DNA of 41,252 nucleotides from a virus. Its lineage: Duplodnaviria; Heunggongvirae; Uroviricota; Caudoviricetes. The notes under the pieces are model-generated. The model saw only the letters and a list, made by a program, of their open reading frames with translations. It searched no databases and was not told the DNA's origin. Shown in pieces: positions 2,566 through 41,252 of the stretch. The translations under genes and the position numbers were made by a program. How positions within the stretch are numbered: the stretch's first letter is position 1; each line of letters begins with the position of its first letter. Location of the stretch: IMG/VR virus record IMGVR_UViG_2623620416_000002, positions 1-41,252 of that record. One strand, given 5' to 3'.

Positions 2566-3114
2566 ATGAGACCAGTAAATAAAGCTGGAATTGACTTAAT
2601 CAAATCATTTGAAGGTCTATTCCTAAAACCATATTTAGATCCTATTAAGATCCCAACTATTGGTTATGGAACCATTGTTTATCCTAATGGTAAAAAAGTT
2701 ACGATGCAAGATCGTGCTATTACTGAAGCTGAAGCTACTGAATACTTAATGCACGAAGTTGAAGAGAAAGCTCATAATGTTGAGCGCATGACAAAAGTAA
2801 AACTTAATGACAATGAGTATGCAGCTCTTGTAAGCTTCGCTTATAATGTTGGTTGGCCTGCACTTGAGAAGTCAACTTTAATGAAGCTCCTGAATGCAGG
2901 GAGTGACCGTGGTGCAGTTGCTGATCAGTTCTTGAGATGGAATAAGGCTGGCGGCAAAGAACTTGCAGGATTGACACGCAGACGTCAAGCTGAGCGCTCA
3001 CTTTTCTTGCAACCTGTTGTAGAATCTAAAGCAGAACACTTGCCATCCGGCCCCTCGGATGACGACATTAACGCAAAGCTTAAAAAGCTGGAGGACGAGA
3101 TTATGAAGAAATAG
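2566..3114 (+). CDS. Endolysin, GH24 phage lysozyme
   Basis: Catalytic E-x8-D-x5-T triad in SFEGLFLKPYLDPIKIPTIGYG, plus ALVSFAYNVG and GLTRRRQAER motifs. Confidence 0.93.
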   Translation: MRPVNKAGIDLIKSFEGLFLKPYLDPIKIPTIGYGTIVYPNGKKVTMQDRAITEAEATEYLMHEVEEKAHNVERMTKVKLNDNEYAALVSFAYNVGWPALEKSTLMKLLNAGSDRGAVADQFLRWNKAGGKELAGLTRRRQAERSLFLQPVVESKAEHLPSGPSDDDINAKLKKLEDEIMKK

Positions 3115-5678: not shown

Positions 5679-6060
5679 TATTAAAACAGATTTATATTAC
5701 GCTCTTGAGTTGCCATTTGCAAAGATTAAGTCTTTTAACATAGATCAAGAAAATCACTTCTACATAGAAAGACCTAAAACTGAACTCACTTTAGTGTATC
5801 TGATTGATCAGATGGACCAAAGACCTAATGCAATTATGCTAGGTGAGTTAGAAAAGCACATGTCTATAGTTTGCCATCAAATAAGTACAGTGTTTCTTTC
5901 TCGTCAATTTGAGCAAAGTGAAATTGGACTAAAATCAGTTACTTATAAACTTCAAGTTAAAGACTATGATGTCTTTCTTTCTGGACTAGAAGAAATAGGT
6001 CGACGAAGATATAACGAACAATTCACTAAAGCTTTAGAAGCGAAGCTCTCAGAATCCTGA
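5644..6060 (+). CDS. Hypothetical protein, ~138 aa (start uncertain)
   Basis: ORF fills the gap between dut and the MTase-like gene. Confidence 0.65.
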   Translation: MVRVALDQLENNIKTDLYYALELPFAKIKSFNIDQENHFYIERPKTELTLVYLIDQMDQRPNAIMLGELEKHMSIVCHQISTVFLSRQFEQSEIGLKSVTYKLQVKDYDVFLSGLEEIGRRRYNEQFTKALEAKLSES

Positions 6061-6067
6061 GTATAAT
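6061..6067 (+). promoter_or_regulatory. -10 box GTATAAT, leaderless geometry
   Basis: TATAAT at 6062-6067 overlaps the ATG at 6066; the next in-frame ATG (6075) is 7 nt downstream. Confidence 0.65.
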
Positions 6068-6074
6068 GTCTGGC

Positions 6075-6836: not shown

Positions 6837-8572
6837 TGTCACTATACGAAAAATCTAAAGCAAAGAATATAACCGCTGATAAGCAAACTATTAAACAAGT
6901 AGTTCACGGAACAATTGACAAAATGGCTACAATCGTGGGAGCTACACTTGGTCCTGGTGGACGACCAGTTCTTATTGAGCGCGATTCTCTTTCTCCACTG
7001 ATTACTAAAGACGGAGTTACTGTTGCTAAATCACTTGGTGTTGAAAACGCTGAGGCAAATGTTATTATTGATGCTGCAAAAGAAATCTGTTTGAAAACTG
7101 CTAAGGAGGCTGGTGACGGTACTACTACTGCCATCGTGTTAGCAAATGCAATCACTAAAAATGGTCTTAACTTTCTTGATGCGAATCCTAAATACAATCC
7201 TCAACGCATGGTTAACGAACTACAAGACGTATACAGTTCCATCATTATCCCGTTCCTTAAGAACAATGCTATTGCAATTAAAGACAGGGATTCACTTGTC
7301 CACGTTGCAACAATTTCAGCTAATGGTGATAAAGCTATCGCTGAAGCAGCTGTCACTGCTGTTATGGCTGCGGGAGAAGACGGCCACGTTCTAATTGAAG
7401 AAGCACAAGGAAATCAACTTAAAGTTGAAACAATGGATGGATTCATCGTTACTTCTGGTCTTAAAGACATTGGAGCTGCAGGTCGATTATTCTTCAATGA
7501 CCGCGGATTACAACAAACTAAAATGGATCGTGGACTAGTTTTCCTATTTGACGGAACTCTTAATGATTTAAAAGTACCGGCAGCAATTCAACAAGCGATT
7601 GAAGGTACTGAGCTATTTGGTTTACCCGTAGCAGTGTTTGCTCATAATTTTGCGGATACAGTAATTGATGCTTTTGCTAAAACTACTAAAGGCGGATATA
7701 CTGTTGTTCCAGTAAAGACACCTATGTCTGGTGTAGCCAACTCTCGTTCTAGCTTTCTACATGACATGGCAGCTTATACCGGTGCAACTGTTTATGATCC
7801 TGGAACATTAGATACTTTTATTACAACAGACGGTACTGCAGGTTTTGGTGCTTTTGATAGCGCTAAAGTCGGCATGTATGAATCTGTTGTTCAAGCAATC
7901 CCTGACTCTGAAAAAATTGATGCACGCTTAGCTGAGTTGAAACACTTAATGGATGTTAGTCCATCTGATTTTGATAAGATGCATATTAAAGCTGCCATTG
8001 GTAAATTAACTGGCGGTATCTCAACTATCTGGGTTGGCGGTGGATCTGAATTAGAAGCTCGTGAAAAACGAGATCGTGTTGAAGATGCTGTTGAAGCAGT
8101 AAAGAGCGCTATCGCCGAAGGAATCGTTCCAGGCGGTTGTGCTGTTCAGCTTGTTCTTTCTCATATTATTTCAAGTCATCCCAATAAGAAACCTTCTTGG
8201 GATATTATGGCTCAATCTTTAAGTGAACCATTCAATCTTCTCCTTACAAACTGTGGAGAGAATGTTGAAGAAGTATGGCCTGTTATTGGTCAACACGTTA
8301 TTGATAGTGCAACAGGCAACAAATTACCAACCAATGTATTTGACGCTAACCAGCACGTTATCGTTAATGCGCTCGATGTTGGAATCATTGAGCCTGCTAA
8401 AGTTTGTCGGGTAACTATAGGTAATGCTTTATCTGTAGCTTCTTTATTAACCACTCTTGGCGGTATCGTGGTTTCTCCACGCAATGCAGGCTTAGAGCAA
8501 CAACTTGAATTGTCCAAAGGGGCATTCAAAGAAATGATGTCCGCTAGTACCGGACACGTAGGTCAGGAGTAA
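6836..8572 (+). CDS. groEL: GroEL-like phage chaperonin
   Basis: GATLGPGGR, ITKDGVTVAKS, EAGDGTTTA, VEDAVEAVKSAIAEGIVPGG and GIIEP motifs. Confidence 0.95.
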   Translation: MSLYEKSKAKNITADKQTIKQVVHGTIDKMATIVGATLGPGGRPVLIERDSLSPLITKDGVTVAKSLGVENAEANVIIDAAKEICLKTAKEAGDGTTTAIVLANAITKNGLNFLDANPKYNPQRMVNELQDVYSSIIIPFLKNNAIAIKDRDSLVHVATISANGDKAIAEAAVTAVMAAGEDGHVLIEEAQGNQLKVETMDGFIVTSGLKDIGAAGRLFFNDRGLQQTKMDRGLVFLFDGTLNDLKVPAAIQQAIEGTELFGLPVAVFAHNFADTVIDAFAKTTKGGYTVVPVKTPMSGVANSRSSFLHDMAAYTGATVYDPGTLDTFITTDGTAGFGAFDSAKVGMYESVVQAIPDSEKIDARLAELKHLMDVSPSDFDKMHIKAAIGKLTGGISTIWVGGGSELEAREKRDRVEDAVEAVKSAIAEGIVPGGCAVQLVLSHIISSHPNKKPSWDIMAQSLSEPFNLLLTNCGENVEEVWPVIGQHVIDSATGNKLPTNVFDANQHVIVNALDVGIIEPAKVCRVTIGNALSVASLLTTLGGIVVSPRNAGLEQQLELSKGAFKEMMSASTGHVGQE

Positions 8573-24016: not shown

Positions 24017-24475
24017 ATGGACTCTAAAAAAGAAGTAAACCTGGAGGAGTACGTCGATCAAAGACGATGGCTGTTAAATAACGGCTTCATCACTGACGAT
24101 GTAAAAAACCAGCTATTCTTTTGTGGTTCTATTGTCCATAAGGAAGTACAAGCTGTTGAGTTAGATTTAGAACCAGAAAATAAAAAGGTTCATTACAAGA
24201 TCTACGTAAACTCAGATCTCATTAAGAAGATTAGCAAGTATCACGTTCTCTCTAAGTCCACATCATTGTTTGATATGTGGCGATTCAAGCGCTTCCTTAA
24301 AAAAGAAGGAGCATTGGACTTCCAACAAATCCTGACTAAATTAGTCAAGGATTATTGCGGACCCACTTGGAGCGTCACACTTACAGTATTGGACTTCAAC
24401 ACCTACGTAGATGGGCTTGGAGAACAAAGTGAGATCGCTGGACGAAGTCAGCAACTTGATCAATTGCCTGAGTAA
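24017..24475 (+). CDS. Hypothetical protein, 152 aa
   Basis: AGGAG SD. Confidence 0.75.
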   Translation: MDSKKEVNLEEYVDQRRWLLNNGFITDDVKNQLFFCGSIVHKEVQAVELDLEPENKKVHYKIYVNSDLIKKISKYHVLSKSTSLFDMWRFKRFLKKEGALDFQQILTKLVKDYCGPTWSVTLTVLDFNTYVDGLGEQSEIAGRSQQLDQLPE

Positions 24476-24851
24476 CGACGAAGACGTAAGGCAAGACCTT
24501 TGGGTTCATTATTTGAGCGGTGCATCCGTTGAATCATTTGAAGCGCGCCTAGTGCGAATTAAAGTTGAGCACCAAGAAGATTCAGAGTTACAAAAAGCAA
24601 TATGGACATTAATCAATAATCCTATTTCGCAAGATCTTGCGAAACTTATCGAAACTAACTTTACTGACTATGAAAGATCAATTATTTGCTGTCTTATACT
24701 TGGACTTGATTCAGGTCGCATTTCTGAGATAAAAGGTATTAGTCAGGTACGTATTAAGCAGACTCTAGCAACTATCAGGTATAATAAATGTTGGGAAGAG
24801 GCTTATGGCACTAAAGAAAAACCTAACAGAAGAAGAGCGATACGGTCTTAG
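24429..24851 (+). CDS. Small sigma-factor-like protein (ECF-like, region-4 HTH)
   Basis: FTDYERSIICCLILGLDSGRISEIKGISQVRIKQTL fits the sigma70 region 4.2 pattern; N-terminal QDLWVHYL. GTG at 24429 has a GGAG SD (track start 24411). Confidence 0.55.
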   Translation: MRSLDEVSNLINCLSNDEDVRQDLWVHYLSGASVESFEARLVRIKVEHQEDSELQKAIWTLINNPISQDLAKLIETNFTDYERSIICCLILGLDSGRISEIKGISQVRIKQTLATIRYNKCWEEAYGTKEKPNRRRAIRS

Positions 24852-25440
24852 CGAAGAAGAGATCAAACTCGCTACTAAACACTTACGTAAAAATAAGACG
24901 GCTGGGGCTCTACAAGATTTAGAGGCTGCCAAGCTTTATGAAATGTACCTTCTTGGTGACTCAATTGCTAAGATTGCACAGAATTTTCCAAACTATACAA
25001 TTGGTCAAATTGCTTTAACGGCTGCTCTTAGAGGCTGGGCCAAAGACAGAGACAAAATGCAACACACCCTACAAGATAGGGTTCGTGCAAAAGTTGTTAA
25101 ATCTGTACTAGATCAAGTTGACTTCCTTACTTCTATGATGGCTGTAGCAAATGCAGAGCACTTAGAAGCCATGATCAAATACGTTCAAGATCCTATTAAT
25201 AATCCAAAACCTGCAATGCGGGTAACTAATATCAAAGAATATAAAGATGTTGCAGAAACTCTTTATAAGATTGTTGCTGGTTCTACTGGTGGCGGCACTG
25301 GAAAAGGCAAAGATAAATCTCCAATGTTTGATGCTCTTACAGCTTCACCTAATAAGCAAAATCAAGAGCCAGAAGAAGATGAAGACTTTGATATTACTAA
25401 ATTAGCTGACGCTATGCCTACGCCAACTGGTAAGGAATAA
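24805..25440 (+). CDS. Putative terminase small subunit
   Basis: HTH-like segment LYEMYLLGDSIAKIA...RGW; immediately precedes and is coupled (TAATG) to the large subunit. Confidence 0.55.
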   Translation: MALKKNLTEEERYGLSEEEIKLATKHLRKNKTAGALQDLEAAKLYEMYLLGDSIAKIAQNFPNYTIGQIALTAALRGWAKDRDKMQHTLQDRVRAKVVKSVLDQVDFLTSMMAVANAEHLEAMIKYVQDPINNPKPAMRVTNIKEYKDVAETLYKIVAGSTGGGTGKGKDKSPMFDALTASPNKQNQEPEEDEDFDITKLADAMPTPTGKE

Positions 25441-27365
25441 TGGCTAAGAAGAAGGCACCGAAATTAACATTAGAGCAAGAGCGCAAACTTTTGCTAAAAC
25501 CATGTCGCACTAAGCAAGAGCTTAAGGGCTGGATCAAATATTTCCTAAATCTAGAACTACCAGATGTAACTGTATCTCGTTACTCAGATACAAATCCCTT
25601 ACAGGTTATTTGGGAAGTTTATGATATTTGTGTTAATAAAAATAACCCTGAGAATATTAAAGAATTACTATTTGTTGCCGGTCGAGGTTCAGGAAAGACC
25701 TTAGGTATGGCTATTGCTGAACTTATGGTTATGTTTCATGATTCTCGTGAAGTTGTGCATGTTGGGGCTATTCAAAACCAAGCTGAACGTTGCTATGCTT
25801 ATCAAAAGAACTTTCTATATAATCGTAAATTAAAGCCACTCGTTACACCTCCTGATATTCCAGAAGAGCAAAGAATTTTAGAAAAAGCTAATATGTCTAA
25901 ATCTCTTTTTAATATTGGCGGTGAAAAGATTACACTAGAAGTTATCCCTTGTACGTTAAAAGCCTGTAACGGTCCTCACGTTCCCCTCGTGGTCGTGGAT
26001 GAGATCGATACGGTTTCTGGTGAAGGTGTGAAGGCCTTCAAAGAAATCTCAGGGATGCTTGACTCCCGTAACGGAAAGAAAGCCCTTCGTGTAGGTATCT
26101 CTACGCGTAAGTCACGTTATGGGCTAATGAATAAGCAAATTGAAAATGCTAAAGAAGAAGGTCGTACTGTTCGCCGCTGGACTGCATTTGAGTTCATGGA
26201 GCGTTGCGATGATACTAGATCAGGTACTAAAAAGATTCCACTTTATGTCAACCAAGACAAAATGGAGACTTTAACTCAGTATGAATTTGATAAAAAGGAA
26301 CCTGTTAAGCAAAAAGAATACACAATGTATGAAGGTTTTGAAGGTTGTGCTAAATGCCCTATCTTCTCAATTTGTTTAACAGATGCTAAAAATCAAACAT
26401 CTACTTCTCCTATGTTAAAAAATTTAGATGTGGATTTGATTCAAAAAGTTAAAGCAGAAGGCGCCGATTGGGCCCTTGCTCAGTTAATGAACTTGAAACC
26501 TTCAGTTGAAGGGATCATTTATCGTGAGTTTGAAGAAAAGATTCACGTTAAAGATTGGGATCAAATGTGGAAGATACTTACTGGTAAAGATTATCCAGGT
26601 GAGTGCTCTCATGATAGATTTGTTGCAAAGTGCCATGAAATGCAACTTCCATGCTATGCAGGGATTGACTGGGGATATTCATCGCCTAATACTGTTGTTT
26701 TCTTCTTTATTGATAAAAGAGATAATGTCTTTATAGTTTGCACTGATGGTATGACTCAGATTTCATCTCCTGCCTGGATTCATCACCTTAAGACTAAATA
26801 TCATCTTAAGTATAGAGTTCAACTATATGTACCAGATCAAGCAGATCAAGGTGCGATTCAAGAAATGAAAAAAGCAGGCTTACCTACTGCAAATGATGCA
26901 AAGAAGCCTGAGATCATGGCTGGTATTCAAACAATTAAGAAACTACTTAAAGTTCCTGGTGGATCTGAAGCTAAACTATTTATTAATGAGGAATGTCAGC
27001 ATATTATTAGTGAATTTGGTTTATATCACTATAAACTTGATGCTGCTGGTATGGTTACAGATATTCCAAACACAGATCACGATCACTGGTTGGATGCTTT
27101 ACGTTATCCACTTTCTTTGTTATTAGGTAAAAATAACATAGTTTTAGGTGGTGGACTAGATTTCGATAATACAGAAGGTTTGCGAGATACTAATGGTTCT
27201 TATAGCAGAACACCTACCGCTGCTGAATTTGCGCAAACACAAGGAATTCCGTTTCAACAAAATGAACCGGATGCTTCAAAGCTGGGAAAAATTGGTAAGA
27301 AATCTGATTTAGATGACCCAGATGATAGCTCTGGAAGCCAGGGCGGCTTCTTATGGTCCTTTTAA
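25440..27365 (+). CDS. Terminase large subunit
   Basis: Walker A AGRGSGKT, Walker B VVVDEID, motif III ISTRK, nuclease AGIDWG and DHWLDALRY. Confidence 0.93.
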   Translation: MAKKKAPKLTLEQERKLLLKPCRTKQELKGWIKYFLNLELPDVTVSRYSDTNPLQVIWEVYDICVNKNNPENIKELLFVAGRGSGKTLGMAIAELMVMFHDSREVVHVGAIQNQAERCYAYQKNFLYNRKLKPLVTPPDIPEEQRILEKANMSKSLFNIGGEKITLEVIPCTLKACNGPHVPLVVVDEIDTVSGEGVKAFKEISGMLDSRNGKKALRVGISTRKSRYGLMNKQIENAKEEGRTVRRWTAFEFMERCDDTRSGTKKIPLYVNQDKMETLTQYEFDKKEPVKQKEYTMYEGFEGCAKCPIFSICLTDAKNQTSTSPMLKNLDVDLIQKVKAEGADWALAQLMNLKPSVEGIIYREFEEKIHVKDWDQMWKILTGKDYPGECSHDRFVAKCHEMQLPCYAGIDWGYSSPNTVVFFFIDKRDNVFIVCTDGMTQISSPAWIHHLKTKYHLKYRVQLYVPDQADQGAIQEMKKAGLPTANDAKKPEIMAGIQTIKKLLKVPGGSEAKLFINEECQHIISEFGLYHYKLDAAGMVTDIPNTDHDHWLDALRYPLSLLLGKNNIVLGGGLDFDNTEGLRDTNGSYSRTPTAAEFAQTQGIPFQQNEPDASKLGKIGKKSDLDDPDDSSGSQGGFLWSF

Positions 27366-27366
27366 G

Positions 27367-27373
27367 GTAGAAT
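27367..27373 (+). promoter_or_regulatory. -10 box GTAGAAT (leadered)
   Basis: TAGAAT at 27368-27373; GAGGTG SD before GTG 27393. Confidence 0.55.
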
Positions 27374-27392
27374 AGCTAAATAGAGGTGCATT

Positions 27393-29396
27393 GTGGCAAT
27401 CTGGGATGACTGGTTAAAAAATAGAATTAAAGGTGAGATTGGTGAGCTGTTAAAAGCTGACGGCGTCACTGTTGATAATGATGCTCAAGCTGCAGCTCCA
27501 ACTGGTATGGTTACTGGAGCTTATACCGCTGATGTGCTTCCGGATCAACCCGAAAACAACGATGTTTCTAAGCAAATTGGCCGTAAAGCCATTATTGATG
27601 ATCCGTATTTTGAGCAAATGTCAAATACGGTCAATGTTAAGCAAAAACTTTCTAGACTTAGTAATAAATCACTTAAAGAAGTTTCTGTACGCGATTGGCT
27701 AGTTTCTTCTATTATTCAAGCCCGTGTTGACACATTGTTGCGTTTTTCTCGTCCAGAGCATAGAAGACATGAAATGGGTTTCCGCTTTGTTAAGAAAGAC
27801 CACAATGCAGAATACAGCACTGAAGAATTACAAGAGATAGCTTCTCTTGAAGATTTTATCTATAATTGTGGTCGTAAAGAAGGAACACCTGTTGAAGATC
27901 GAATGTTGTTTGGTGAGTTTTTAAAACTTACTGTTCGCGATGCTTTAACTTTTGGTCACGTAGCTATTGAAAAAGTTAAAACACGTAAAGGTGGATTACA
28001 CCGAATTCGTCCACTTCCTGCTGAAAACACATACCTACTTCCTCAGCGTATGTCAAAAGAGCAAATTATCCAACAAGATCAAGCGGCTCAACAACAGTTT
28101 AAACAGCCACTATCAAACAATGATCCTAAAGCTAAACAAGAATTAAATTTAGCTGATAATGAATACTGGAAATTCGTTCAAGTATCTTATAATATGCAAC
28201 CAATGAATTACTTTGGCGATGAGGATATGATTTGGAAGAATTTCAATCCACAGAACTTTGCTGATTCTCAGGGCTATTGTTATTCTCCACTTGAACTTGC
28301 TATTATCAATGTTACTAATCACTTGAATGTAGAAAACTATAATAGTAACTTCTTTACTCATGGTTATGCTGCACGAGGAGTTCTTCATTTAAAAGGGACT
28401 GTTACACAATCCCAATTAATGAATTTCCGTCGTCAGTTTTATAACACTATCTCAGGAACTCAACATGCTTGGAGAACTCCAATTGTTGCTGGTCTTGATG
28501 AAGTTCAATGGGTACCAATGTCTGGTTCTGCGAAGGAAATGGAATACATTAACTTCAATAACCACTTAATGCGTATCCTTTGTGCACAATTCCAAATTGA
28601 TCCAGTTGAATTAGGTCTTGATTACTTAGTTTCTGCTAATGGTAAATCTCCAGCTCAACAATCAAATAATGAATACAAGATTGAATATTCACGTGAGCGT
28701 GGTTTATATCCAATCTTAATGTTCATGGAAGACTTAATTAATTCTGACGTTTTGCCATCTATTGATAAAGATATGGCAAATAAGTATCGTTTTGTGTTTA
28801 CTGGCTATACAGATGAGACTCCTCAAACTGAAATTGCCCAAATGCAAGCTGAGATGACTGTATTTAAGTCAATGAATGATCTTTTAATTCAATCTCAAAA
28901 AGAACGAATTAAAACTCCTGCTGCAGATCTTCCATTAAATCAAGCTTTCTGGGCTTTGGTTGAAAAGAATATGACTAAAGGTGAGATTCGTGAAACATTC
29001 TTTGGTGACAAAGGTGCTTCTCAACGTCGAGAACTGCAATACATTCCTGGTGATCCAGCATTTATGAGTTGGCAACAGACACTGCTTGCTATTGATAATG
29101 CTAAGAAGCAAGAAGCTCAAATGGCTGCTCAAGGTCAATCTGAAGCTCAACAACAAGCTATGGAAATGAAACTTAAAGAGCAAGAGCATGGTCATAAAGA
29201 AGCTGCTCACGCTAGAGATCAAGAAAAGCATCAAATGGAAATAGAGCAACTAAAAGCTCAAGCTGCTGCTGATGCTGTTGGTCATGGTGGAAACGCTCTT
29301 CGCGATGCTGCTAAAAAGTTTGGTGCCTCTGGTGCATCTAACGTTGGTGGAAAAGTTATGGCTAATCCAATCAATAAATTAGACGATGAGAGTTAA
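27393..29396 (+). CDS. Portal protein
   Basis: Follows TerL; YSPLELA...NFFTHG...GVLHLKG...FRRQF...GLDEVQW...QFQIDPVELG fits the HK97/SPO1-type portal pattern. Confidence 0.88.
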   Translation: MAIWDDWLKNRIKGEIGELLKADGVTVDNDAQAAAPTGMVTGAYTADVLPDQPENNDVSKQIGRKAIIDDPYFEQMSNTVNVKQKLSRLSNKSLKEVSVRDWLVSSIIQARVDTLLRFSRPEHRRHEMGFRFVKKDHNAEYSTEELQEIASLEDFIYNCGRKEGTPVEDRMLFGEFLKLTVRDALTFGHVAIEKVKTRKGGLHRIRPLPAENTYLLPQRMSKEQIIQQDQAAQQQFKQPLSNNDPKAKQELNLADNEYWKFVQVSYNMQPMNYFGDEDMIWKNFNPQNFADSQGYCYSPLELAIINVTNHLNVENYNSNFFTHGYAARGVLHLKGTVTQSQLMNFRRQFYNTISGTQHAWRTPIVAGLDEVQWVPMSGSAKEMEYINFNNHLMRILCAQFQIDPVELGLDYLVSANGKSPAQQSNNEYKIEYSRERGLYPILMFMEDLINSDVLPSIDKDMANKYRFVFTGYTDETPQTEIAQMQAEMTVFKSMNDLLIQSQKERIKTPAADLPLNQAFWALVEKNMTKGEIRETFFGDKGASQRRELQYIPGDPAFMSWQQTLLAIDNAKKQEAQMAAQGQSEAQQQAMEMKLKEQEHGHKEAAHARDQEKHQMEIEQLKAQAAADAVGHGGNALRDAAKKFGASGASNVGGKVMANPINKLDDES

Positions 29397-29566: not shown

Positions 29567-30427
29567 ATGGCATTAGTATTACTTGAAGGTTTAGATCGCA
29601 CAGGTAAATCTACCGTTGCCGCTTATTTTGAAACACTTGGTTTCGAAAAGATTCATCTTTCTGCTCCTGCTAAAGGAACCACTCCAGATCAATATCTACA
29701 AGATATGATTGATCTTGTTTCGTCTGCTGCAAATAAAGATATTGTAATGGATCGAACTCACTATGGTGAATTAGTGTGGCCACAAATCTATGGGCGTAAA
29801 GCTCTTCTTGATGAAGAGGCAATTGAGGCTCTTAGAGAAGTAGAAAATTCTGTAGGTGTTCAACGCCTATGGATGACAGATGATGACCTTAAGGCTCATT
29901 GGCAGCGTTGTGTAGATAATAAAGAACCTCTTGATAAGGCACAGTTTACTCGTGCACGAGGATTGTTTTCTTCAATTGCCAACCAATATGGTTTTGAAAA
30001 AGTCACACTACAGACGTTCCTTAAGCAATTTCCGGATGCTCAAGCGATTGTAGATGCACAAAAAGGTGCTGCACTAGAAAGTAAAACATTACAAGTAACT
30101 TCTTCTGGTGGTCAAACTACGACTACTGAAGTTGAAACGCCAGTTGCGCCAGTTAGTTCTACATCGGCTAAGTATCCACAAAAGTCACGTGAGCAGCATA
30201 CTTTAGAGGTTGCAAACGCTATTAATGAAATTTTATCAAAACGTATCCTCAAATCAAAAGGAAACGTGTATGATGATATTGAAAACGAAATGCGCCACTT
30301 CCTTCATACTAAATTAGGCAAGCTTTTAGGTGGCGGTTCAAATTCAAATGAACTTTCTTTAACTCAAGATGAAATTAAGTTTTACAAAACTATGTATAAA
30401 AGAGCTAACGATAAAGGAGCTAACTAA
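29567..30427 (+). CDS. Thymidylate-kinase-family P-loop nucleotide kinase with a C-terminal extension
   Basis: LLEGLDRTGKST P-loop and MDRTHYGELVW motif. Confidence 0.8.
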   Translation: MALVLLEGLDRTGKSTVAAYFETLGFEKIHLSAPAKGTTPDQYLQDMIDLVSSAANKDIVMDRTHYGELVWPQIYGRKALLDEEAIEALREVENSVGVQRLWMTDDDLKAHWQRCVDNKEPLDKAQFTRARGLFSSIANQYGFEKVTLQTFLKQFPDAQAIVDAQKGAALESKTLQVTSSGGQTTTTEVETPVAPVSSTSAKYPQKSREQHTLEVANAINEILSKRILKSKGNVYDDIENEMRHFLHTKLGKLLGGGSNSNELSLTQDEIKFYKTMYKRANDKGAN

Positions 30428-31417: not shown

Positions 31418-31424
31418 GTATAAT
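31418..31424 (+). promoter_or_regulatory. -10 box GTATAAT, leaderless geometry
   Basis: TATAAT at 31419-31424, 7 nt before GTG 31432; flanked by a near-palindrome CCGTAG/CTATGG. Confidence 0.65.
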
Positions 31425-31431
31425 CTATGGT

Positions 31432-33087
31432 GTGGCTAAGAAACCTCTAGAAATTGACATGATTGCCGGCTCCCAGCTTAGGGACACACAGGGAGAAATG
31501 CTCTCCGTGGAAGGCGCTGATATATCTGAATTACAAGCTGGCCGTGGTCGTCTTAATGATAATCATGGAAAAGGCTTCTTTAATGCTATTGGTCGCGTAA
31601 CCGATGCTAAAAAAATCTTTAAAAAAGAAGATTGTGAAAATGAAAGACAAGAGTATTACTGGAATAAAGTAAAAGCTCCTTTTATTTTTGTTAAAGGCTA
31701 TCTATATGACGATGAAGATCATCCTAATGCTAGAGCAGCTGCCGCTATTTTAAGAAACATACATAAAACTGATACACCGCTACAGCTGAAAGCTTCAGTT
31801 GAAGGTGGAGTTCTTGCTCGTGGTGTTTCTGATAGTACGTTGCTTGCTAGAACTAAAATTCATTCGGTGGCGTTAACATTTACTCCTGCTAATAACAATA
31901 CCCTTGTTGAGCCTACCAGTCTTAAGAAATCAGAATACGATGAGGCTGCAGATATGCTTCTCATTAAATCTGTAGTTCATTTGGCTCAAACAAATGTACC
32001 TTCTTTCCGTCATATCGCTCGCGATGCTTCAGCTACAAAGGTTCAAAATAACCTTACAAAGCTTGTAGATCTTATGAGAGAGTTAGGAATTGAAGGAGAG
32101 ATTACAATCCCCTCTAAACAGCAAATTCTAAATAAAGCTTTAGAGCAAAAAATTCAAACTAATATAGAATTAATAAAACAAAAGATGGCCGAATTAAAAG
32201 CAGAAGAGCTTGAAAAAGCTGGTATTAAAAATGCTTTAGCGGCTGCTGGCATGGGCGCTGCATTAGCAATGAGCCCATCAATGACTTCACAGAATGATTC
32301 ATCTCCAGTAGCACCTTCTGTACCTGCTGAAGCTCAAAAGCAAAAAGCTTCTATGCAGGAAGTATATAGCCGAGTATCAAAAGAGCACCCAATGCTTGGT
32401 GCAATTGGTATGAAAGAATCTTCTGGTGGAAAAAACCTTAATCATAAAACGATGAAAGGTGGAATTCACGATGGAATGACAGCTGGCGGACCATGGGGAA
32501 TGATGCCACACTCAGCGGCATTTGCTATTAAAAAAGATAAAGATTTAGCAGAAAAGTACCCTAAGTTAGCAGAAATTGCAAATGATGTAGATAAACATCA
32601 TAAGACATTTACAGATACATTCAATAATGATCCTGAAGCTGCAGCTGACTTTGCAATTTCAGCATATAAGAGAAATAAGAGCAAAACTAAGAGTGACCAT
32701 CAAATGGCTTATAGTTGGCTTAATGGTTTAAAAGGTTCTTGGAATAAGTATAAAGAAGGTGGCCAAGCTGCCCTAGAGCAACACCCTTATGTACAAGGCG
32801 TAATGTCTGAATATAAGAAGTTAAAAAGTGAAAAAGTTGAGCAAAAGAAACCACTTAAGAAAGCTATGACAGCTGGATATGGTGGAGCGGCGTCCCCTAC
32901 GTCACGAGTTTCTGGCGCAGTAATCCAGAGTGAGTCCTTAGAACAAGGTCGACCTGGGTTTAAGTATATTTCGTGTGATAATTGTGGAAAAGAGCAAGTC
33001 CACTCTAAACACCAGGTAAAATGTAGGGAGTGTGGTCATGGTATGAGTTTTGAAAAGTTATACCAGGCTATGCGCGGTAATAAGTAA
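31432..33087 (+). CDS. Prohead protease fused to a lytic-transglycosylase-like domain, a capsid N-arm copy and a zinc ribbon
   Basis: N-domain NDNHG...IGRV...ASVEG...VALTFTPAN (HK97/SPO1-type protease). Middle KESSGG...GPWGMMP (SLT-like). C-terminal KAMTAGYGG... and CDNC/CREC. Confidence 0.75.
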   Translation: MAKKPLEIDMIAGSQLRDTQGEMLSVEGADISELQAGRGRLNDNHGKGFFNAIGRVTDAKKIFKKEDCENERQEYYWNKVKAPFIFVKGYLYDDEDHPNARAAAAILRNIHKTDTPLQLKASVEGGVLARGVSDSTLLARTKIHSVALTFTPANNNTLVEPTSLKKSEYDEAADMLLIKSVVHLAQTNVPSFRHIARDASATKVQNNLTKLVDLMRELGIEGEITIPSKQQILNKALEQKIQTNIELIKQKMAELKAEELEKAGIKNALAAAGMGAALAMSPSMTSQNDSSPVAPSVPAEAQKQKASMQEVYSRVSKEHPMLGAIGMKESSGGKNLNHKTMKGGIHDGMTAGGPWGMMPHSAAFAIKKDKDLAEKYPKLAEIANDVDKHHKTFTDTFNNDPEAAADFAISAYKRNKSKTKSDHQMAYSWLNGLKGSWNKYKEGGQAALEQHPYVQGVMSEYKKLKSEKVEQKKPLKKAMTAGYGGAASPTSRVSGAVIQSESLEQGRPGFKYISCDNCGKEQVHSKHQVKCRECGHGMSFEKLYQAMRGNK

Positions 33088-33577: not shown

Positions 33578-34297
33578 ATGGATAACAAATTACAAAAGAG
33601 TCTTACAGATCTAATCGATGAAACTCTTATGGAGCTAGACGAACTTCGTAAATCGAAATTCGCTGCTGCTGAGATCAAAATCGAAGGTCCAGGCGATGGT
33701 ATCGCTGGTAAGCCGTCTGATGGAAAGTTAGATGCTGCTAAAGCTGACGACGACAAAAAAGACGAAAAAGACGAAGACAAAAAAGACATGGATAAAGCTG
33801 AAGACAAGAAAGACGATAAAAAGTCTGACGAAGAAGAAGCTGAAGACATGGATAAAAAAGAAGACAAAGAAGATAAAGATGAGGACAAAGAACCTCACAA
33901 AGACGACCCTAAGCATGAAGAAAAAGAAAAGAAGATTGCAAAAGACCTTCTTGACATGCACAAAGGTGAAATGAAAAAGTCTTTAGAATCTACTGAGTCT
34001 TTAATGAAGAGCTACGTTGAAGAGCGAGTAAAGCCGCTTGAAGACAAACTTTCTACAATCCTTGACTTAGTCAATAAGATTGCAGATGCTCCTGTTGCTC
34101 CTAAAGGTGCTACAGCAAGAACAACTCCTCTGTTGAAATCAGCGGATCAAGGTTCTGAACCATTGTCAAAAGCTCAAGTAGCTTCAAAACTATTTGAATT
34201 GAAAAAATCAGGTACTCGCGTTGATTCTTTAGATATTACTAAAGCTGAAATGGGACAAGACCTACAACAAATTGCTAAAAAATACGAGATTTCGTAA
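33578..34297 (+). CDS. Putative capsid scaffolding protein
   Basis: Very K/D/E-rich with a coiled-coil C-terminus, many xxK(A/S) motifs, and position directly before the MCP. Confidence 0.7.
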   Translation: MDNKLQKSLTDLIDETLMELDELRKSKFAAAEIKIEGPGDGIAGKPSDGKLDAAKADDDKKDEKDEDKKDMDKAEDKKDDKKSDEEEAEDMDKKEDKEDKDEDKEPHKDDPKHEEKEKKIAKDLLDMHKGEMKKSLESTESLMKSYVEERVKPLEDKLSTILDLVNKIADAPVAPKGATARTTPLLKSADQGSEPLSKAQVASKLFELKKSGTRVDSLDITKAEMGQDLQQIAKKYEIS

Positions 34298-34315: not shown

Positions 34316-35767
34316 ATGATGACAGACGCTGTTAATCAAATTCTATCAGGGCTAGATCAAGGTATCGTGTCTCAAGCAGACATCGAAAACCTTAACAAAG
34401 CCATCACAGCCGGTTACGGCGGAGCTGGTAAACCAACAGACCTCACTTATGGTGGTGTCCTTCAAGCGGAATCATTAGAAGCTACATTGAAAAGTGTTAC
34501 CTTCGACATGAAAAACTTGAAAATGTGGCCTGCAATCTCCGTTGATAAGGCATACAACTTGTTCGAGCAATATAACCGCTTGATCAGCTACGGGTCAGAC
34601 TCTGCACCATATATTGGTGAGGGTGGAGCGCCGATCGAAGAAGATTCGACGTACGTTCGTGACGGACAAAAGATCGTGTTCTTCGGTACACGACGTAAAG
34701 TCTCTCACCAAATGACTTTAGTTCGCACAACTGTTGGTGACATCGTTGCGCAACAAGCTAAAGAAGGAACTATGCACCTTCTTAAGAACGTTGAACGTGA
34801 AATGTATTGGGGTCATGCTCACTTCATTAACCGTCTTGACGGTTCAAACTCAGGATCTCCTGCTGATCTTCCACAGAACAGCATCGCGATGTCTGGTTTG
34901 TTACAACAACTTAAAAAAGGTGATTCAGACGTATTAATGCGTTCTGGTGACTTCGAAGGTTATGGCGATGCTCAATCTATCGCTCAAGACCTTGGTGGTA
35001 ACGTAATTGCTCAAGACGACATCGAGCGTTTAGCAGTTATCGCATTGGAAAACTTCGGTTCTCCATCTGAGCTACACATCGAACCAGCTGCTTTGTCAGC
35101 GTTCGTAAAACAGTTCTATCCTCAGTTCCGTTCTGCTCCAGGTCTTGCTAACCAAACGGTTGGTTATGACGTGAACAAAATGACTACAACTGCTGGAACT
35201 GTAGACTTCAAGCCTAACTTGTTCTTGCGCCCTCGCGCTGGTGCTCGTGCTCTTGCGGTTTCCGCTCTTGCTCCTGCTCCTGGTTCATTCGCTGTTGCTT
35301 CAGCTGGTGCTGGTGCTGGTTCTGCTTACGCAGCCGGTGTTTACCAAATCAAGGCAACTTTAGTTAATGACGCTGGTGAATCAATCCCAGTTCAAGGTGC
35401 TGCTGCTACTATCACTGCTGGACAAAACATCCAGTTGACAGTAACAAACATGCCTGCTAACGTTAAGTACATCAAGGTGTTCTTATCTGCAGCTGGTGGC
35501 GCTGTTGGAACTGAAAAGTTCGCAGGTAACTTTGCAAACGCTGGAAACACTACTTATGTGTTAGCTGGACGTAAGCAAGCTGGTCTTGGTGAGGCATTCT
35601 TGTTAGATATGTCTGCTGAGTGCATGAAGTTCAAGCAATTGGCTCCATTAAGCAAAATCAACTTTGCTATCGTTACGACTGCTCTTGAGTTCGCGATTGT
35701 TATGTACGGAGCTTTATTCGTATATACTCCACGATTCAACTGCTTGTTCGAAAACGTAGGTAAGTAA
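34316..35767 (+). CDS. Major capsid protein (SPO1/Twort-type HK97 fold)
   Basis: N-terminal KA|ITAGYG and LQAESL; C-terminal QLAPLSKINFA...FAIVMYGAL..YTP...FENV closely parallels Twort-like capsid C-termini; highly biased codon use; terminator follows. Confidence 0.92.
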   Translation: MMTDAVNQILSGLDQGIVSQADIENLNKAITAGYGGAGKPTDLTYGGVLQAESLEATLKSVTFDMKNLKMWPAISVDKAYNLFEQYNRLISYGSDSAPYIGEGGAPIEEDSTYVRDGQKIVFFGTRRKVSHQMTLVRTTVGDIVAQQAKEGTMHLLKNVEREMYWGHAHFINRLDGSNSGSPADLPQNSIAMSGLLQQLKKGDSDVLMRSGDFEGYGDAQSIAQDLGGNVIAQDDIERLAVIALENFGSPSELHIEPAALSAFVKQFYPQFRSAPGLANQTVGYDVNKMTTTAGTVDFKPNLFLRPRAGARALAVSALAPAPGSFAVASAGAGAGSAYAAGVYQIKATLVNDAGESIPVQGAAATITAGQNIQLTVTNMPANVKYIKVFLSAAGGAVGTEKFAGNFANAGNTTYVLAGRKQAGLGEAFLLDMSAECMKFKQLAPLSKINFAIVTTALEFAIVMYGALFVYTPRFNCLFENVGK

Positions 35768-36399: not shown

Positions 36400-37074
36400 A
36401 TGAAAAAGGCAAAATATATTTGTTTAGAAGGAACTGAAGGTGTTGGTAAGACAACACAAACACAATTACTGGTTGATACGCTGAAAGCGCGAGGATACAC
36501 CGTATTGCAAACAAAAGAACCGGGCACATCTCTTGTCCCTCTAACAATGATCTTGAGAGGGATCATGCTAGACAATCAATACGACGCGCAAATGACGCGT
36601 CCAGCAAGAGAATTTATCTCTCAGGCAATTCGCTCAATTCACTTAGAGCAATTAGTTGTTCCAAATCTCGATAAGTACGATTTTATTATTCAAGATAGAG
36701 GTATCTTGAGTGGATATGCTTACGGTACTGGCTGCGGCAACCAATTAGGTTTCCTAAAACAGCTTTCTGATGAAGTAGTTGGTTCAGCATCAACTGACGA
36801 CAATGGTTTCTCTCCATACGCTACAAAAATATATGATTCAGTAATATATCTTCGAGGAGACTCTAAGAAGGGTCTTGCAAAAGCTAAAGCAGCAAAACAA
36901 GAATATGCTGCTGGTGATGCAATGGAATCAAAGGGCGATTCATTTATGGAACAAGTATCTTTTAATATGGATTTTATGTCTGAAAGCTTTAATACTGTTA
37001 GAATAGATGTTGACGGCAAGTCTATTGAAGAAGTACACAACGAGATTCTTGCCGGTCTTGGATTGGAGAAATAA
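36400..37074 (+). CDS. tmk: Thymidylate kinase
   Basis: CLEGTEGVGKTTQ, TKEPG and IIQDRGILSGYAYG. Confidence 0.9.
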   Translation: MKKAKYICLEGTEGVGKTTQTQLLVDTLKARGYTVLQTKEPGTSLVPLTMILRGIMLDNQYDAQMTRPAREFISQAIRSIHLEQLVVPNLDKYDFIIQDRGILSGYAYGTGCGNQLGFLKQLSDEVVGSASTDDNGFSPYATKIYDSVIYLRGDSKKGLAKAKAAKQEYAAGDAMESKGDSFMEQVSFNMDFMSESFNTVRIDVDGKSIEEVHNEILAGLGLEK

Positions 37075-37901
37075 TGGCTAAGCAAAAGAAGAAGAATCAA
37101 TCAAAATTAGCAGGTCCTAGGGTTCTTCTATTTGATATTGAAACTGCACCAATTATTGCTCACGTTTGGTCTCTATGGGAGAACAACGTGGCTTTAAATC
37201 AAATCGTGTCTGATTGGCATGTCTTGAGTTGGAGTGCTAAATGGCTTGGTGATCCACCAGATAAAGTTATGTATATGGATCAACGTAATGCAAAAAATAT
37301 CGAAGACGATAAAAAGCTGTTACAAGGGATATGGGATTTACTCAATGAAGCTGATGTCGTTATTACTCAGAACGGCAAATCATTTGATACCAAGAAATTA
37401 AACGCACGCTTTGTCCTTCAAGGCTTTCAGCCTCCAGGCAGTGTCAAGCACATTGATACTAAGATTATTGCAGGTAAAGTTTTTGGATTTACAAGTAATA
37501 AGCTTGAATATATGACTGATAAACTCTGCACAAAATATAAAAAACTAAAACATAAAAAATTCCCTGGCCACGAAATGTGGACACAATGTCTAGCTGGAAA
37601 TCTAGAAGCATGGAAAGAGATGGAAATCTATAATAAATACGATGTTCTTTCTCTTGAGGAACTTTATCACATCCTAATTCCTTGGGACAATAGCATAAAT
37701 TTCAATCTTTATCATGATGAGGAAGATCACGTGTGTAAATGTGGAAGTACTGAATTTCATAAAAATGGTTTCTATTACACTAGTTCCGGTAAATTCCAAA
37801 AACACAAATGTAAACAATGTGGTGCTGAGCATCGCGATAAACAAAACTTATTCTCGAAAGAGAAGCGCGCATCCCTTAAAATGGGTACGCCGAAATCATA
37901 A
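37074..37901 (+). CDS. RNase H-like (YprB/DnaQ-type) exonuclease with a C-terminal zinc ribbon
   Basis: LFDIETAP, QNGKSFD, HIDT, YNKYDVLSLEELY and CKCGS...KCKQCG. Confidence 0.85.
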   Translation: MAKQKKKNQSKLAGPRVLLFDIETAPIIAHVWSLWENNVALNQIVSDWHVLSWSAKWLGDPPDKVMYMDQRNAKNIEDDKKLLQGIWDLLNEADVVITQNGKSFDTKKLNARFVLQGFQPPGSVKHIDTKIIAGKVFGFTSNKLEYMTDKLCTKYKKLKHKKFPGHEMWTQCLAGNLEAWKEMEIYNKYDVLSLEELYHILIPWDNSINFNLYHDEEDHVCKCGSTEFHKNGFYYTSSGKFQKHKCKQCGAEHRDKQNLFSKEKRASLKMGTPKS

Positions 37902-38877: not shown

Positions 38878-40011
38878 ATGGAACTGAAAGGTTTCAGGGA
38901 GTTACTTCTTAAAAAAGCGGCTAACGACCCTACATTACAGACATTGATTGACGTCATGAAAGACGAGATCATTGCTGAGAAGGTTTTAGAATCTCTCGAA
39001 AAAATGGCTCGCCCACAGGCTTCTATGGGTCGAAGTGCAAACGCAGGTGTTACTGCGTTTGGAAATCAAATGAAAAACAAAGACGTAGAGATGATGCGTG
39101 ATGCTTTAGCTCACCACGTTAATCACTATCGTGCTGCATTAAAAAGCGGTAAACGCGATGTTGCAGATCAACATCTAAATAAAATCATTCCTATGATGCA
39201 CTTAGCTGCAAGAGCTGGTGCACATTCAAATGGTCAATTAGGGCTAGACTATGTTCCTCTTGAGCCATGGGAAACAAATTACACATCAACTGAGCGTCGC
39301 CCAGAAACAGGTAAACTTAAAGAAGGAACTAAGGGTCTTCGTCGTCGCTTAAATAGCGCAAGTCGAGATAAAAATCCTCGTTCCGTTCCAGATTACCGTT
39401 ATCTAGAAATGGCGCCTCACGAAGAGCATGCTGATAGTAAAAAGTCATCTCATAAAGGTGGATATCCATTTGAAGAAATTCAATTAGGTAATCCAGCAAA
39501 AATTGATGCTAAAGAAGCATATTTGCATCTTCATGATGTTGAACCACAAGATAAATTTACACCTCATCCATTTGATGAACATCCAATTCATGAAGTGGGA
39601 GAGCATAAACAGGACTCTATGACTCCTGAGCAAATGGAAGATTTTGCGACTAAAATGCAAGGATGGCATGGATCAGAACATAATGCAAAATGGATGCAAA
39701 GCGTGAAAGAACTTCATGCTAAAGATCCTGAAGCATTTAAAGTTCGTGGTAAGACAAAAGCCCCACATCATTTTGAAGGTATTGATTTATTACAACAACC
39801 TCATGCTCAAAAAGCTGGAGTTGATGTGTCTGCTTTACCTCCAGAGCTTGCTGCTAAATTTGGAAATAAGCCTGCGGCTGCACCAGCACAAACTGCTGCA
39901 CCTGCGCCTGCTCAACCAGAAGTTGCTCCTGCAAAACCTGCAGCAGCACTTCCACAAGAACATCTTGCTAACCTTCCTCCAGCACTACGTGCTAAGTTTG
40001 GCGGTAAGTAA
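38878..40011 (+). CDS. Hypothetical His-rich protein, probable internal head protein, 377 aa
   Basis: AAGGAG SD; LLKKA near the N-terminus; P/A-rich tail with repeated LPPELAAKFG/LPPALRAKFG. Confidence 0.75.
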   Translation: MELKGFRELLLKKAANDPTLQTLIDVMKDEIIAEKVLESLEKMARPQASMGRSANAGVTAFGNQMKNKDVEMMRDALAHHVNHYRAALKSGKRDVADQHLNKIIPMMHLAARAGAHSNGQLGLDYVPLEPWETNYTSTERRPETGKLKEGTKGLRRRLNSASRDKNPRSVPDYRYLEMAPHEEHADSKKSSHKGGYPFEEIQLGNPAKIDAKEAYLHLHDVEPQDKFTPHPFDEHPIHEVGEHKQDSMTPEQMEDFATKMQGWHGSEHNAKWMQSVKELHAKDPEAFKVRGKTKAPHHFEGIDLLQQPHAQKAGVDVSALPPELAAKFGNKPAAAPAQTAAPAPAQPEVAPAKPAAALPQEHLANLPPALRAKFGGK

Positions 40012-41252
40012 TGTCTAAAATTGATTTATTAATGCAAAAATTAAAAGTTGCAAAAGAAGAGCTTGAAAAAGCTCGTCCAAAAATGTCTGATGAATATGAT
40101 CCAAATGATATGGATGATAATGATTCTGTTGACCCTGATTTAGAAGGTCTTCGTGAATTTGATCCAGACGATGAAGAGTCGGCAGGAGCTGACTGGTTAA
40201 AAGAAAATGACCCAGAAGCGAAAGCTCAAGGAGGAGACGAATATGAAGAGTACGATGATGACGAAGATCCAGATGCACATCAAAGATCTATTGAAGAAGA
40301 TCTCGGAGATGATAACTCAGAGTCTGAATTGGTTGAACCAGAAGCCGGAAGCACCCAAGCTGCCAGAGAAGGTAACGCCAATATCAGAGGGCAAAAAGAT
40401 CCGCAAGAAAAAGCATTATTACAAAAACCACAAGCCTCGCAAGAAGTAAGTGGCAAGAAGAGTCGTTGGAATCAGCCAAGCCGTGATGAACTCATGTCTT
40501 TGCGCCAATACACTCGTCCTTGGGAGCAACGTGCTCGTGAAGCACAAGCTTTAAAAGCCGATCCAACTAAGAACCCAGAACTAGCTAGACACGGAAATAT
40601 TATCGAAGCTAGAAATCAGGCTCATGGTGATAGGAATTCTGCATATCGTCAATTTGCAAACTCAGACGAATATAAAAATGCAGATCCAATCACACAGATG
40701 GAAATGGATGATAATTTTGAAAAAGAATGGCATGCTAAGAATCCAGAGCATTTAAAGAATGCTCTAGGTGCTCATAGCGAAGCTCATACTAAAGGTAAAA
40801 GCGCAAAAGACTTGCATGCAGCAGCTAAAGATGCACAGATTAAGAATATTATTTCTGGTGGCGGACATGGCGGCGAAGGATATTCTCTTGAAGAGGGTAT
40901 GCAACATGCTGGCGGTACCAAAGGTGAAGAAGGAACTCAAGCAACTGTGAAGCAGGATCCTGCTTCTAGTTTTGCTATGGGCAATCAAGACTTCATTAAT
41001 CAGTATGCAAAAGATTATGCCAACAAGGGTAAAAAAGTTGGCAACATCGATGAGATGCACCACTATGACGAAGGTTCTAAACGAGACATAGCTCGCATCC
41101 TTGGTGAAGGTCCAAATAAAGATCCAAAATTTGAAAAGTTTTTCGAACACTATCATCCATTAATTGGTATGAATGCTCATAAAACTTTAAACCGTTTAGG
41201 ACTTGATCCTAAGAGTCCCGATATTGATATGAGCATGTTGCATGAAGCTGGA
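40011..41252 (+). CDS. Large acidic protein, 3'-truncated (>414 aa); possible sigma region-2-like domain begins at the window end
   Basis: TAATG-coupled ATG at 40011 and open to the end of the window (absent from the ORF track). MSKIDLLMQKLKVAKEELEKARPK is followed by a D/E-rich region and ends FFEHYHPLIGMNAHKTLNRLGLDPKSPDIDMSMLHEAG. Confidence 0.8.
   Translation, partial: MSKIDLLMQKLKVAKEELEKARPKMSDEYDPNDMDDNDSVDPDLEGLREFDPDDEESAGADWLKENDPEAKAQGGDEYEEYDDDEDPDAHQRSIEEDLGDDNSESELVEPEAGSTQAAREGNANIRGQKDPQEKALLQKPQASQEVSGKKSRWNQPSRDELMSLRQYTRPWEQRAREAQALKADPTKNPELARHGNIIEARNQAHGDRNSAYRQFANSDEYKNADPITQMEMDDNFEKEWHAKNPEHLKNALGAHSEAHTKGKSAKDLHAAAKDAQIKNIISGGGHGGEGYSLEEGMQHAGGTKGEEGTQATVKQDPASSFAMGNQDFINQYAKDYANKGKKVGNIDEMHHYDEGSKRDIARILGEGPNKDPKFEKFFEHYHPLIGMNAHKTLNRLGLDPKSPDIDMSMLHEAG

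Follow-up and report, generated by a model that had tools for sequence, protein, structure and literature searches.

A lytic-transglycosylase-like domain carried by a phage prohead protease between candidate self-cleavage sites

The stretch of DNA analysed here (the window, 41,252 nt, positions 1 to 41,252 of IMG/VR record IMGVR_UViG_2623620416_000002) makes up the initial 41 kb of phage contig C305 (146,658 bp). Its head module harbours, between the portal and major capsid protein (MCP) genes, an open reading frame (ORF; 31432..33087, + strand) coding for a 551-residue prohead protease polyprotein, P0001, whose GTG start agrees with the homologue N-terminus MAKKPLEID. A TATAAT hexamer ends ~7 nt ahead of this GTG (31419-31434), and no Shine-Dalgarno-like sequence is visible between the two. 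The polyprotein, all the features of which are encoded on the + strand, is composed of a protease domain, a helical linker, an Ala/Gly-rich stretch followed by a lytic-transglycosylase-like domain, a copy of the N-terminal segment of the capsid protein and a zinc ribbon. More than 640 metagenomic homologues, from uncultured phages of ~150-180 kb, keep this whole architecture, and His45, Ser122, Glu329, Lys477 and four Cys residues are invariant in an alignment of 74 sequences. Conservation over so many homologues argues that these features are not due to chance.

The protease domain comprises residues 1 to 166 (31432..31929) and has an assemblin-like beta fold. Its residues 17-160 match the PHROG family phrog_1028 ('head maturation protease', 8.5e-11), and over residues 4-158 the domain shares 40 % identity with the corresponding putative protease of Myxococcus phage Mx1; Herelleviridae-type proteases gave weaker matches to the same domain. 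The full-length AlphaFold model shows a beta-rich domain at residues 1-161, and Foldseek searches with that model retrieved the assemblin proteases of pseudorabies virus, human cytomegalovirus, Epstein-Barr virus and Kaposi's sarcoma-associated herpesvirus with probabilities of 0.96-1.00 and E-values down to 7.9e-4. An initial annotation of the window, made from the letters alone, had called this protein a prohead protease, in agreement with these matches. The conserved columns point to His45 (codon 31564-31566, in the context NDNHG) and Ser122 (codon 31795-31797, KASVEGG) as very likely being the catalytic pair. A candidate release site, L164-K-K166-S167 (31921..31932), ends the domain; K166 is invariant and L164 near-invariant in the 74-sequence alignment, and the S-L164-K-K166-S motif occupies the position that ALVKS|MTTGY has in the protease of Brochothrix phage A9. 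It is followed by a scaffold-like linker (residues 167-262, 31930..32217), with helices predicted at positions 171-188, 192-217 and 229-263 of the AlphaFold2 model.

The next 215 residues (264-478, 32221-32865), which run GIKNALAAAGMGAALAMSP ... LGAIGMKESSGG ... TAGGPWGMMP ... PLKKA, were previously proposed to represent a muralytic cargo. The segment lies between EELEKA (residues 258-263) and PLKKA (474-478), the two bounds on which that proposal was based, and both are indeed in place. It starts with an Ala/Gly-rich helix (264-282, 32221..32277), first described as hydrophobic. The Ala/Gly composition is as described, but the stretch is only weakly hydrophobic, with a Kyte-Doolittle maximum of 1.10 over 19 residues, which is below the usual transmembrane cut-off. 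A low-complexity linker rich in Pro, Ser and Ala follows (283-307, 32278..32352) and is predicted to be disordered. The lytic-transglycosylase-like, lysozyme-fold catalytic domain itself (308-465, 32353..32826) harbours the motifs E329-S330-S-G-G, H338, G353-P-W-G356-M-M-P359 and A426-Y-S-W-L-N-G432, and Glu329 (codon 32416..32418), which had been singled out from the start as the catalytic residue, is the predicted catalytic acid. The phage has a single copy of this domain.

Direct scans of the 215-residue segment against Pfam, PHROGs and NCBIfam yielded no hits, and the 551-residue protein did not match Pfam SLT at E-values up to 0.1. Exhaustive HMMER searches with residues 296-478 collected 381 clusters (at 50 % identity) at E-values up to 1e-3, and 129 of these were aligned (alignment A1). 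Twenty-four of the 129 match Pfam SLT weakly, with a best E-value of 1.7e-5. One Glu, Glu329, and one Gly are invariant in A1, the consensus of which reads L-x-A-I-x3-E-S-S-G-G-K-N-x2-H ... G-x2-A-x-G-x2-G-L-M-P-x-T ... A-Y-A-W-x-N-G ... H-x-Y-V; Glu329 is also invariant in the 74-sequence alignment, as noted above. The near-invariant His338, nine residues past the catalytic Glu (ESSGGKNxxH), is absent from canonical SLT motifs.

The AlphaFold2 model generated from A1 is an all-helical domain of very high confidence (predicted local distance difference test score, pLDDT, 96.9; predicted template modelling score, pTM, 0.90). In a structural search of representatives, seven lytic transglycosylases rank at the top, namely MltC (12.6), Slt (12.1), Cj0843 (11.7), Slt70 (11.1), MltE (10.4), phiKZ gp144 (10.0) and Pseudomonas aeruginosa Slt (9.8), ahead of other folds of the lysozyme superfamily, and five of the seven superpose with root-mean-square deviations of ~3.1-3.4 Å across 131-138 residues. 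Structural neighbours in the ESM Atlas are SLT clusters (TM 0.63), and SLT clusters appear again, along with destabilase clusters, among the language-model neighbours. Foldseek searches of the PDB also ranked transglycosylases first, with E-values of only ~0.3; because these values are weak, the fold assignment rests on VIA-align and hhalign. The profile of the 129 relatives had no match among all PDB sequences at E-values up to 1, and the full-length profile matched zinc ribbons only.

For the profile comparison, we collected 25 genuine SLT domains (PF01464), taken from the host bin and from relatives of this bin. The resulting profile aligned with the domain at 90.5 % probability (hhalign, E 1.3e-6), a significance reached only with the 25-sequence profile, as single host SLT sequences gave weak probabilities of 5-8 %. 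The alignment pairs Glu329-Ser330 with the SLT E-S motif, A-G-G-P-W-G-M-M-P with A-x-G-L-W-Q-F-M-P, and, with a difference of two residues, A-Y-S-W-L-N-G with A-x-Y-N-x-G. It thus bears out both the assignment of the catalytic Glu and the reading of W-G as a replacement of the usual L-Q, and the lysozyme-like fold, on which the muralytic proposal depended, was found by modelling, structural search and profile alignment alike, closest to SLT family-1. With this family (PF01464; Slt70, MltE, MltC, phiKZ gp144) the domain shares the fold and the E-S motif, and its three aligned motif segments follow in the same order and spacing. Nevertheless, as the Gln of GLMQ is replaced by Gly family-wide and the protein scores below the Pfam detection threshold, we did not file it as an ordinary SLT. 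We regard it as a divergent branch of the SLT superfamily that has no name in Pfam, PHROGs or NCBIfam and has a signature of its own, ESSGG-x4-H and G-x-[WFY]-G-[LM]-M-P. We assign the identities of the protease and lytic-transglycosylase-like domains with high confidence, and we infer an enzymatic activity of the latter, as a transglycosylase or a hydrolase.

Downstream of the module, residues 479-507 (32866..32952) are a copy of the N-terminal segment of the capsid protein (MTAGYGGA...G.V.Q.ESL), with 59 % identity between protease residues 474-505 and MCP residues 24-56. The protein ends with a CxxC...CxxC zinc ribbon (512-548, 32965..33075) that has four invariant Cys and weak S27e/Rpb12-type matches. 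In the MCP, the corresponding junction, L26-N-K28-A29 (34391..34402, + strand) followed by ITAGYGGAG, ends the capsid propeptide. Its L26-N-K-A29 motif is invariant in 24 MCP orthologues, and the following ITAGYGGAGKPTDL...GGVLQAESLE is invariant or nearly so. The protease orthologues keep x-K-A and then [LM]-x-A-G-Y-G-G, and the residues ahead of x-K-A vary.

The same resemblance between protease and capsid occurs in other phages. In Mx1, the protease has ...SFAKA-MEAGNFNAAPSTL and its own capsid protein ...ELRKA-MEAGNFNAKPSTL; in phage A9, the protease has ...ALVKS-MTTGYEHGG and its own capsid protein ...IVSKS-MTTGYNHGG. The two A9 genes (L082:3899-4675 for the protease and 5636-7009 for the capsid protein) share the pattern KS-MTTGY.HGGTDQ..G.ALRRQSLA. 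Since A9 is a Herelleviridae phage, the capsid-copy tail is an old feature of the protease family rather than one specific to this clade. The A9 copy lies directly behind the protease domain, whereas that of the window protein is displaced ~310 residues downstream. On the simplest reading of these sequences, the catalytic domain and its ancestral tail have been separated by insertion of the helical linker plus the muralytic module.

A motif of the form L-x-K-[A/G/S] is common to both junctions of the module and to the end of the capsid propeptide. Candidate cleavage site 1, L260-E-K262-A263 (32209..32220), is found at the end of the long helix, at the onset of disorder, and reads L-[ED]-K-G in most homologues. 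Candidate site 2, L475-K-K477-A478 (32854..32865), with K477 invariant and A478 near-invariant in the 74-sequence alignment, lies in the disordered segment 470-507. The AlphaFold2 model of the full-length protein, built from that alignment, shows two disordered stretches, residues 264-301, including the Ala/Gly segment and with pLDDT values below 50, and residues 470-507, so that both proposed sites are predicted to fall exactly at boundaries between structured and disordered regions. As the bare motif is common, its meaning rests on position and conservation. Motif counting alone was dropped as evidence, since the 206 ORFs of the contig show no N-terminal enrichment. Among the 107 cluster representatives with enough upstream sequence, 70 have hydrophobic-x-K-[GSAN] directly ahead of the Ala/Gly stretch. 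Similarly, [LIMV]xK[AGS] is present in 56 of 81 sequence windows upstream of the domain, compared with 35 % expected, and in 43 of 67 downstream, compared with 20 % expected.

The cuts had initially been placed after the Ala, as LEKA| and LKKA|. The motifs stand, but cleavage is more likely to occur one residue earlier, after the Lys (L-x-K|A/G/S), judging by analogy with the sites of other phages and of herpesviruses. T4 sites are of the type L/I-x-E| and herpesvirus sites of the type V/L/I-x-A|S, with a hydrophobic residue at P3. The sites of the phiKZ/SPN3US protease are A-x-E| (PMC10052503). The K|A register is favoured because the T4, phiKZ/SPN3US and herpesvirus sites all have a hydrophobic or small P3 residue and are cut after P1; the specificity is for cleavage after Glu in T4 and phiKZ, at A|S in herpesviruses and apparently at L-x-K|small here. 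We found no experimentally mapped cleavage site for this protease family in the literature. On balance, self-excision at the junctions seems probable.

The initial annotation had also raised the question of whether homologous proteases swap their cargo, and they do. The putative prohead protease of Mx1 (1239 residues, L073:5962-9678, OR576727.2 13002-16721) has its own copy of the capsid N-terminus (FAKA-MEAGNFNA...) followed by ~950 residues of other, unrecognized cargo with no Pfam match, and a distant metagenomic protease of 549 residues, L039, has basic modules and is devoid of a muralytic domain. Within the family, variants of 605-738 residues are enlarged at the same position, either by an additional zinc-ribbon insert or by one or two further modules that each terminate in ...LTKAELEK[AG] or LDLEKG. 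In P0045, P0101, P0102, P0063, P0095 and P0103, these inserts, which are basic modules of ~70-95 residues (...PKPxLTKAELEK[AG]) or a CxxC...CxxC insert, lie after the helical linker and ahead of the muralytic module.

Conversely, four protein contexts besides the proteases harbour the muralytic domain along with the leader 'LEK[GS] + Ala/Gly helix'. The domain is found in stand-alone proteins of ~200 residues, in which a charged leader of 15-40 residues ending in LEKG precedes the helix, and inside proteins of 800-2160 residues such as P0175, which combines it with two GNAT domains and one NUDIX domain. A third context is a 1479-residue protein of Mx1 annotated as a 'NUDIX hydrolase' and encoded 3.3 kb downstream of the capsid gene, with the module near its C-terminus between ELSKS and PLEKS. 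This Mx1 gene belongs to the head gene cluster (L076:5689-10128, Mx1 24404-28843), and its product is probably a packaged polyvalent protein. Lastly, a set of short proteins combines the domain with classical signal peptides, indicative of a periplasmic site of action. A tblastn search with the domain of the window found no match in 50,697 cultured-phage records, and only the polyvalent-protein copy as the query reached Mx1; a signal-peptide-bearing relative used as the query had no match in plasmids. In a quick tree of the domain, all 11 protease-borne copies group in one weakly supported subtree, and a single capture of the domain by the protease is possible on that basis.

For two late ORFs of the phage (38878-40011 and 40011-41591), orthologues retain L-x-K-A close to the N-terminus, behind leaders that vary. 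Neither had a family match. Both are candidates for protease-trimmed, head-packaged proteins. The motifs read LLKKA in the first ORF and ELEKA/LLKA/LQKA in the second (40011-41252 up to the end of the window), with different leader lengths, and the second ORF has a long acidic region.

These features suggest a model in which the C-terminal tail of the protease has become a cargo-carrying polyprotein, with the cargo as an insert that separates the catalytic domain from the ancestral tail. The cargo would consist of the helical linker and the module, that is, an L-x-K-[A/G/S] junction, the Ala/Gly helix, a flexible linker and the SLT-type domain with Glu329. The precursor would co-assemble within the prohead, where the activated protease would cut the MCP after L-N-K28 and itself near residues 166, 262 and 477. 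The folded module, of ~23 kDa, would be too large to exit the shell and would be retained at about the copy number of the protease. At the next infection, it would leave through the tail with the DNA and cut the peptidoglycan locally in the periplasm, possibly held at the membrane by the weakly hydrophobic helix. We give this full model of a head-delivered entry enzyme a probability of roughly 55 %. We infer the cleavages, their register, head retention and ejection; circumstantial support for cutting, retention and ejection comes from the junction motifs, the disorder at the junctions, the copies of the module in polyvalent proteins and the presence of a separate endolysin. Prohead-protease peptides were detected in virions of Bc431v3, a Bacillus phage whose protease family may differ (PMC3601020).

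Several observations weigh against this model. All members of the clade are uncultured, and the phage has no match to the tail-sheath family PF04984, which bears on the type of tail. The hydrophobicity of residues 264-282 is too low for a confident transmembrane call. The bare L-x-K-[AGS] motif is frequent, at ~2 per 1000 residues in this phage, and it is not enriched at N-termini (22 of the 206 contig ORFs, compared with ~18 expected). Furthermore, protease fragments mostly exit the head in well-studied phages. Lastly, the Gln position of GLMQ is occupied by Gly356, which is near-invariant across the domain family, and the substrate or the chemistry may differ as a result.

The high frequency of the motif by chance and the exit of protease fragments from the capsids of HK97 and T4 would also fit a genuine domain that is neither released nor delivered, being an internal scaffold or filler or being degraded before DNA packaging, with the motifs representing helix caps or linkers. 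However, a filler would not require Glu329 and the motif set to be invariant across deep divergence. The motif is moreover kept at the end of the MCP propeptide and, in unrelated architectures, is enriched both upstream and downstream of the module, and the junctions are disordered and accessible in the model. We thus consider this explanation unlikely. Less probable still is that the lysozyme-fold domain binds or acts on a target other than host peptidoglycan at entry, for instance another glycan, remodels the wall at the site of prohead assembly, or functions as a hydrolase. In both structural and profile comparisons, peptidoglycan lytic transglycosylases are its best matches and also the most frequent ones, and its signal-peptide-bearing relatives indicate the periplasm.

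A role in lysis was also considered. The genome codes for a separate T4-lysozyme-type endolysin (2566..3114, + strand; PF00959, E 2.7e-42), such that lysis does not need the protease-borne domain; Amidase_2, Peptidase_M15_4 and GH19 had no matches in the genome. A nested gene, as in lambda C/Nu3, was rejected, as no ribosome-binding signal precedes Met252. Residues 264-282 cannot serve as the N-terminal signal-anchor of the primary product because they are internal and weakly hydrophobic, with no sign of an internal start. It is therefore very unlikely that the module is an auxiliary endolysin of the signal-anchor-release type, tethered to and then freed from the inner membrane by its helix to aid lysis from within: the weakly hydrophobic Ala/Gly helix directly upstream of a lysozyme-fold domain does resemble such endolysins, and stand-alone relatives of ~200 residues occur, but signal-anchor-release helices lie at the extreme N-terminus, this one is at positions 264-282 of a cytoplasmic protein of 551 residues that offers Sec no N-terminus to engage, even the stand-alone relatives have their charged leader ahead of it, and the gene belongs to the head module rather than to a lysis cassette.

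Beyond the entry-enzyme model, we tentatively put forward a broader one, which we regard as less probable. The proteases of this clade, of Mx1 and of Herelleviridae-type phages might be a general cargo-loading platform, docked by the capsid-copy tail, from which modules between L-x-K|small junctions reach the head and then the host, and 'LEK|G + Ala/Gly helix' might be a portable signal for excision and membrane-proximal periplasmic action. Such a platform would explain why leader and domain recur together in stand-alone proteins, in polyvalent proteins of 800-2160 residues and in proteases.

The proposed entry enzyme resembles known kinds of proteins and does not represent a new principle. 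T4 internal proteins are loaded in the prohead core, trimmed at a short motif by gp21, retained and injected with the DNA. They are encoded by separate genes and have N-terminal tags of ~10 residues, whereas the cargo described here is attached in cis to the protease. Internal virion or ejection proteins of the T7 gp16 and phiKMV gp36 type have a lytic transglycosylase or lysozyme domain, and T7 gp16, a transglycosylase stored in the head and ejected, is required when the wall is highly cross-linked (PMC8954989). In contrast with the present module, gp16 is a separate podovirus core protein of 1318 residues that is neither fused to a protease nor excised, and it contributes to a trans-envelope tunnel. 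We detected no sequence relationship between the two, and delivery of the module is a proposal.

Polyvalent proteins have been proposed to be packaged and injected, and they often harbour lysozyme domains (Iyer, Burroughs, Anand, de Souza and Aravind 2017; PMC5512222). The window protein is similar to them in that it combines unrelated activities (protease, lytic-transglycosylase-like domain and zinc ribbon) in one late-gene polypeptide, and the same module is present in P0175, with its GNAT and NUDIX domains, and in the Mx1 'NUDIX hydrolase'. For the polyvalent proteins described so far, an embedded zincin-like metallopeptidase has been proposed as the processing enzyme, whereas in this case the assemblin-type protease that carries the cargo would itself process it. 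No zincin-like metallopeptidase was found in the window protein by Pfam and PHROG scans or in its AlphaFold2 model.

With respect to the carrier, the prohead protease of SPN3US, gp245, removes its own C-terminal part (PMC10052503). Herpesvirus pUL26, lambda C/Nu3, phiKZ gp175 and SPN3US gp245 likewise have an N-terminal Ser protease of the assemblin fold followed by an extension for procapsid targeting that is autoproteolysed, but these extensions are scaffold or targeting peptides, and none has been reported to contain an enzyme domain. We found no published fusion of a protease with a transglycosylase in the literature. An enzyme domain in cis on a maturation protease, together with a recurrent leader of an SLT-like family, thus seems to be undescribed.

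If the model is correct, tailed phages would have a third way of equipping their virions with an enzyme that breaches the cell wall, in addition to tail-tip or tape-measure lysins and to separate internal core proteins. L-x-K|small junctions, together with a copy of the capsid N-terminus, would provide a rule to predict head-packaged, injected proteins in abundant uncultured phages, and they might offer a design principle by which capsids could be loaded with foreign proteins. The domain family is in itself a widespread, unnamed branch of the SLT superfamily, with 381 clusters, a conserved additional His and Gly where the canonical motif has Gln. Since Mx1 is cultured and has the same module and motif, it represents a practical experimental handle.

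The remainder of the head module comprises the genes for the large terminase (25440-27365), the portal (27393-29396), an acidic scaffold-like protein (33578-34297) and the MCP (34316-35767; phrog_752 major head protein, 2.6e-56). Contig C305 is probably incomplete, as the complete relatives of this phage are 175-177 kb long, one of them with direct terminal repeats. It was binned with a bacterial metagenome-assembled genome of 3.96 Mb in 323 contigs, which is little informative on the host. Genes of nucleotide and DNA metabolism are interspersed among the head genes, with two thymidylate/dNMP-kinase-like genes (29567-30427 and 36400-37074) and one for a protein similar to a DNA-polymerase exonuclease subunit (37074-37901; phrog_403, 5.5e-99). 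A similar arrangement is found in Mx1, where genes for thymidylate synthase and dNMP kinase come right behind the capsid gene. A GroEL-like chaperonin is encoded farther upstream in the window (6836-8572; phrog_5725, 2.2e-90).

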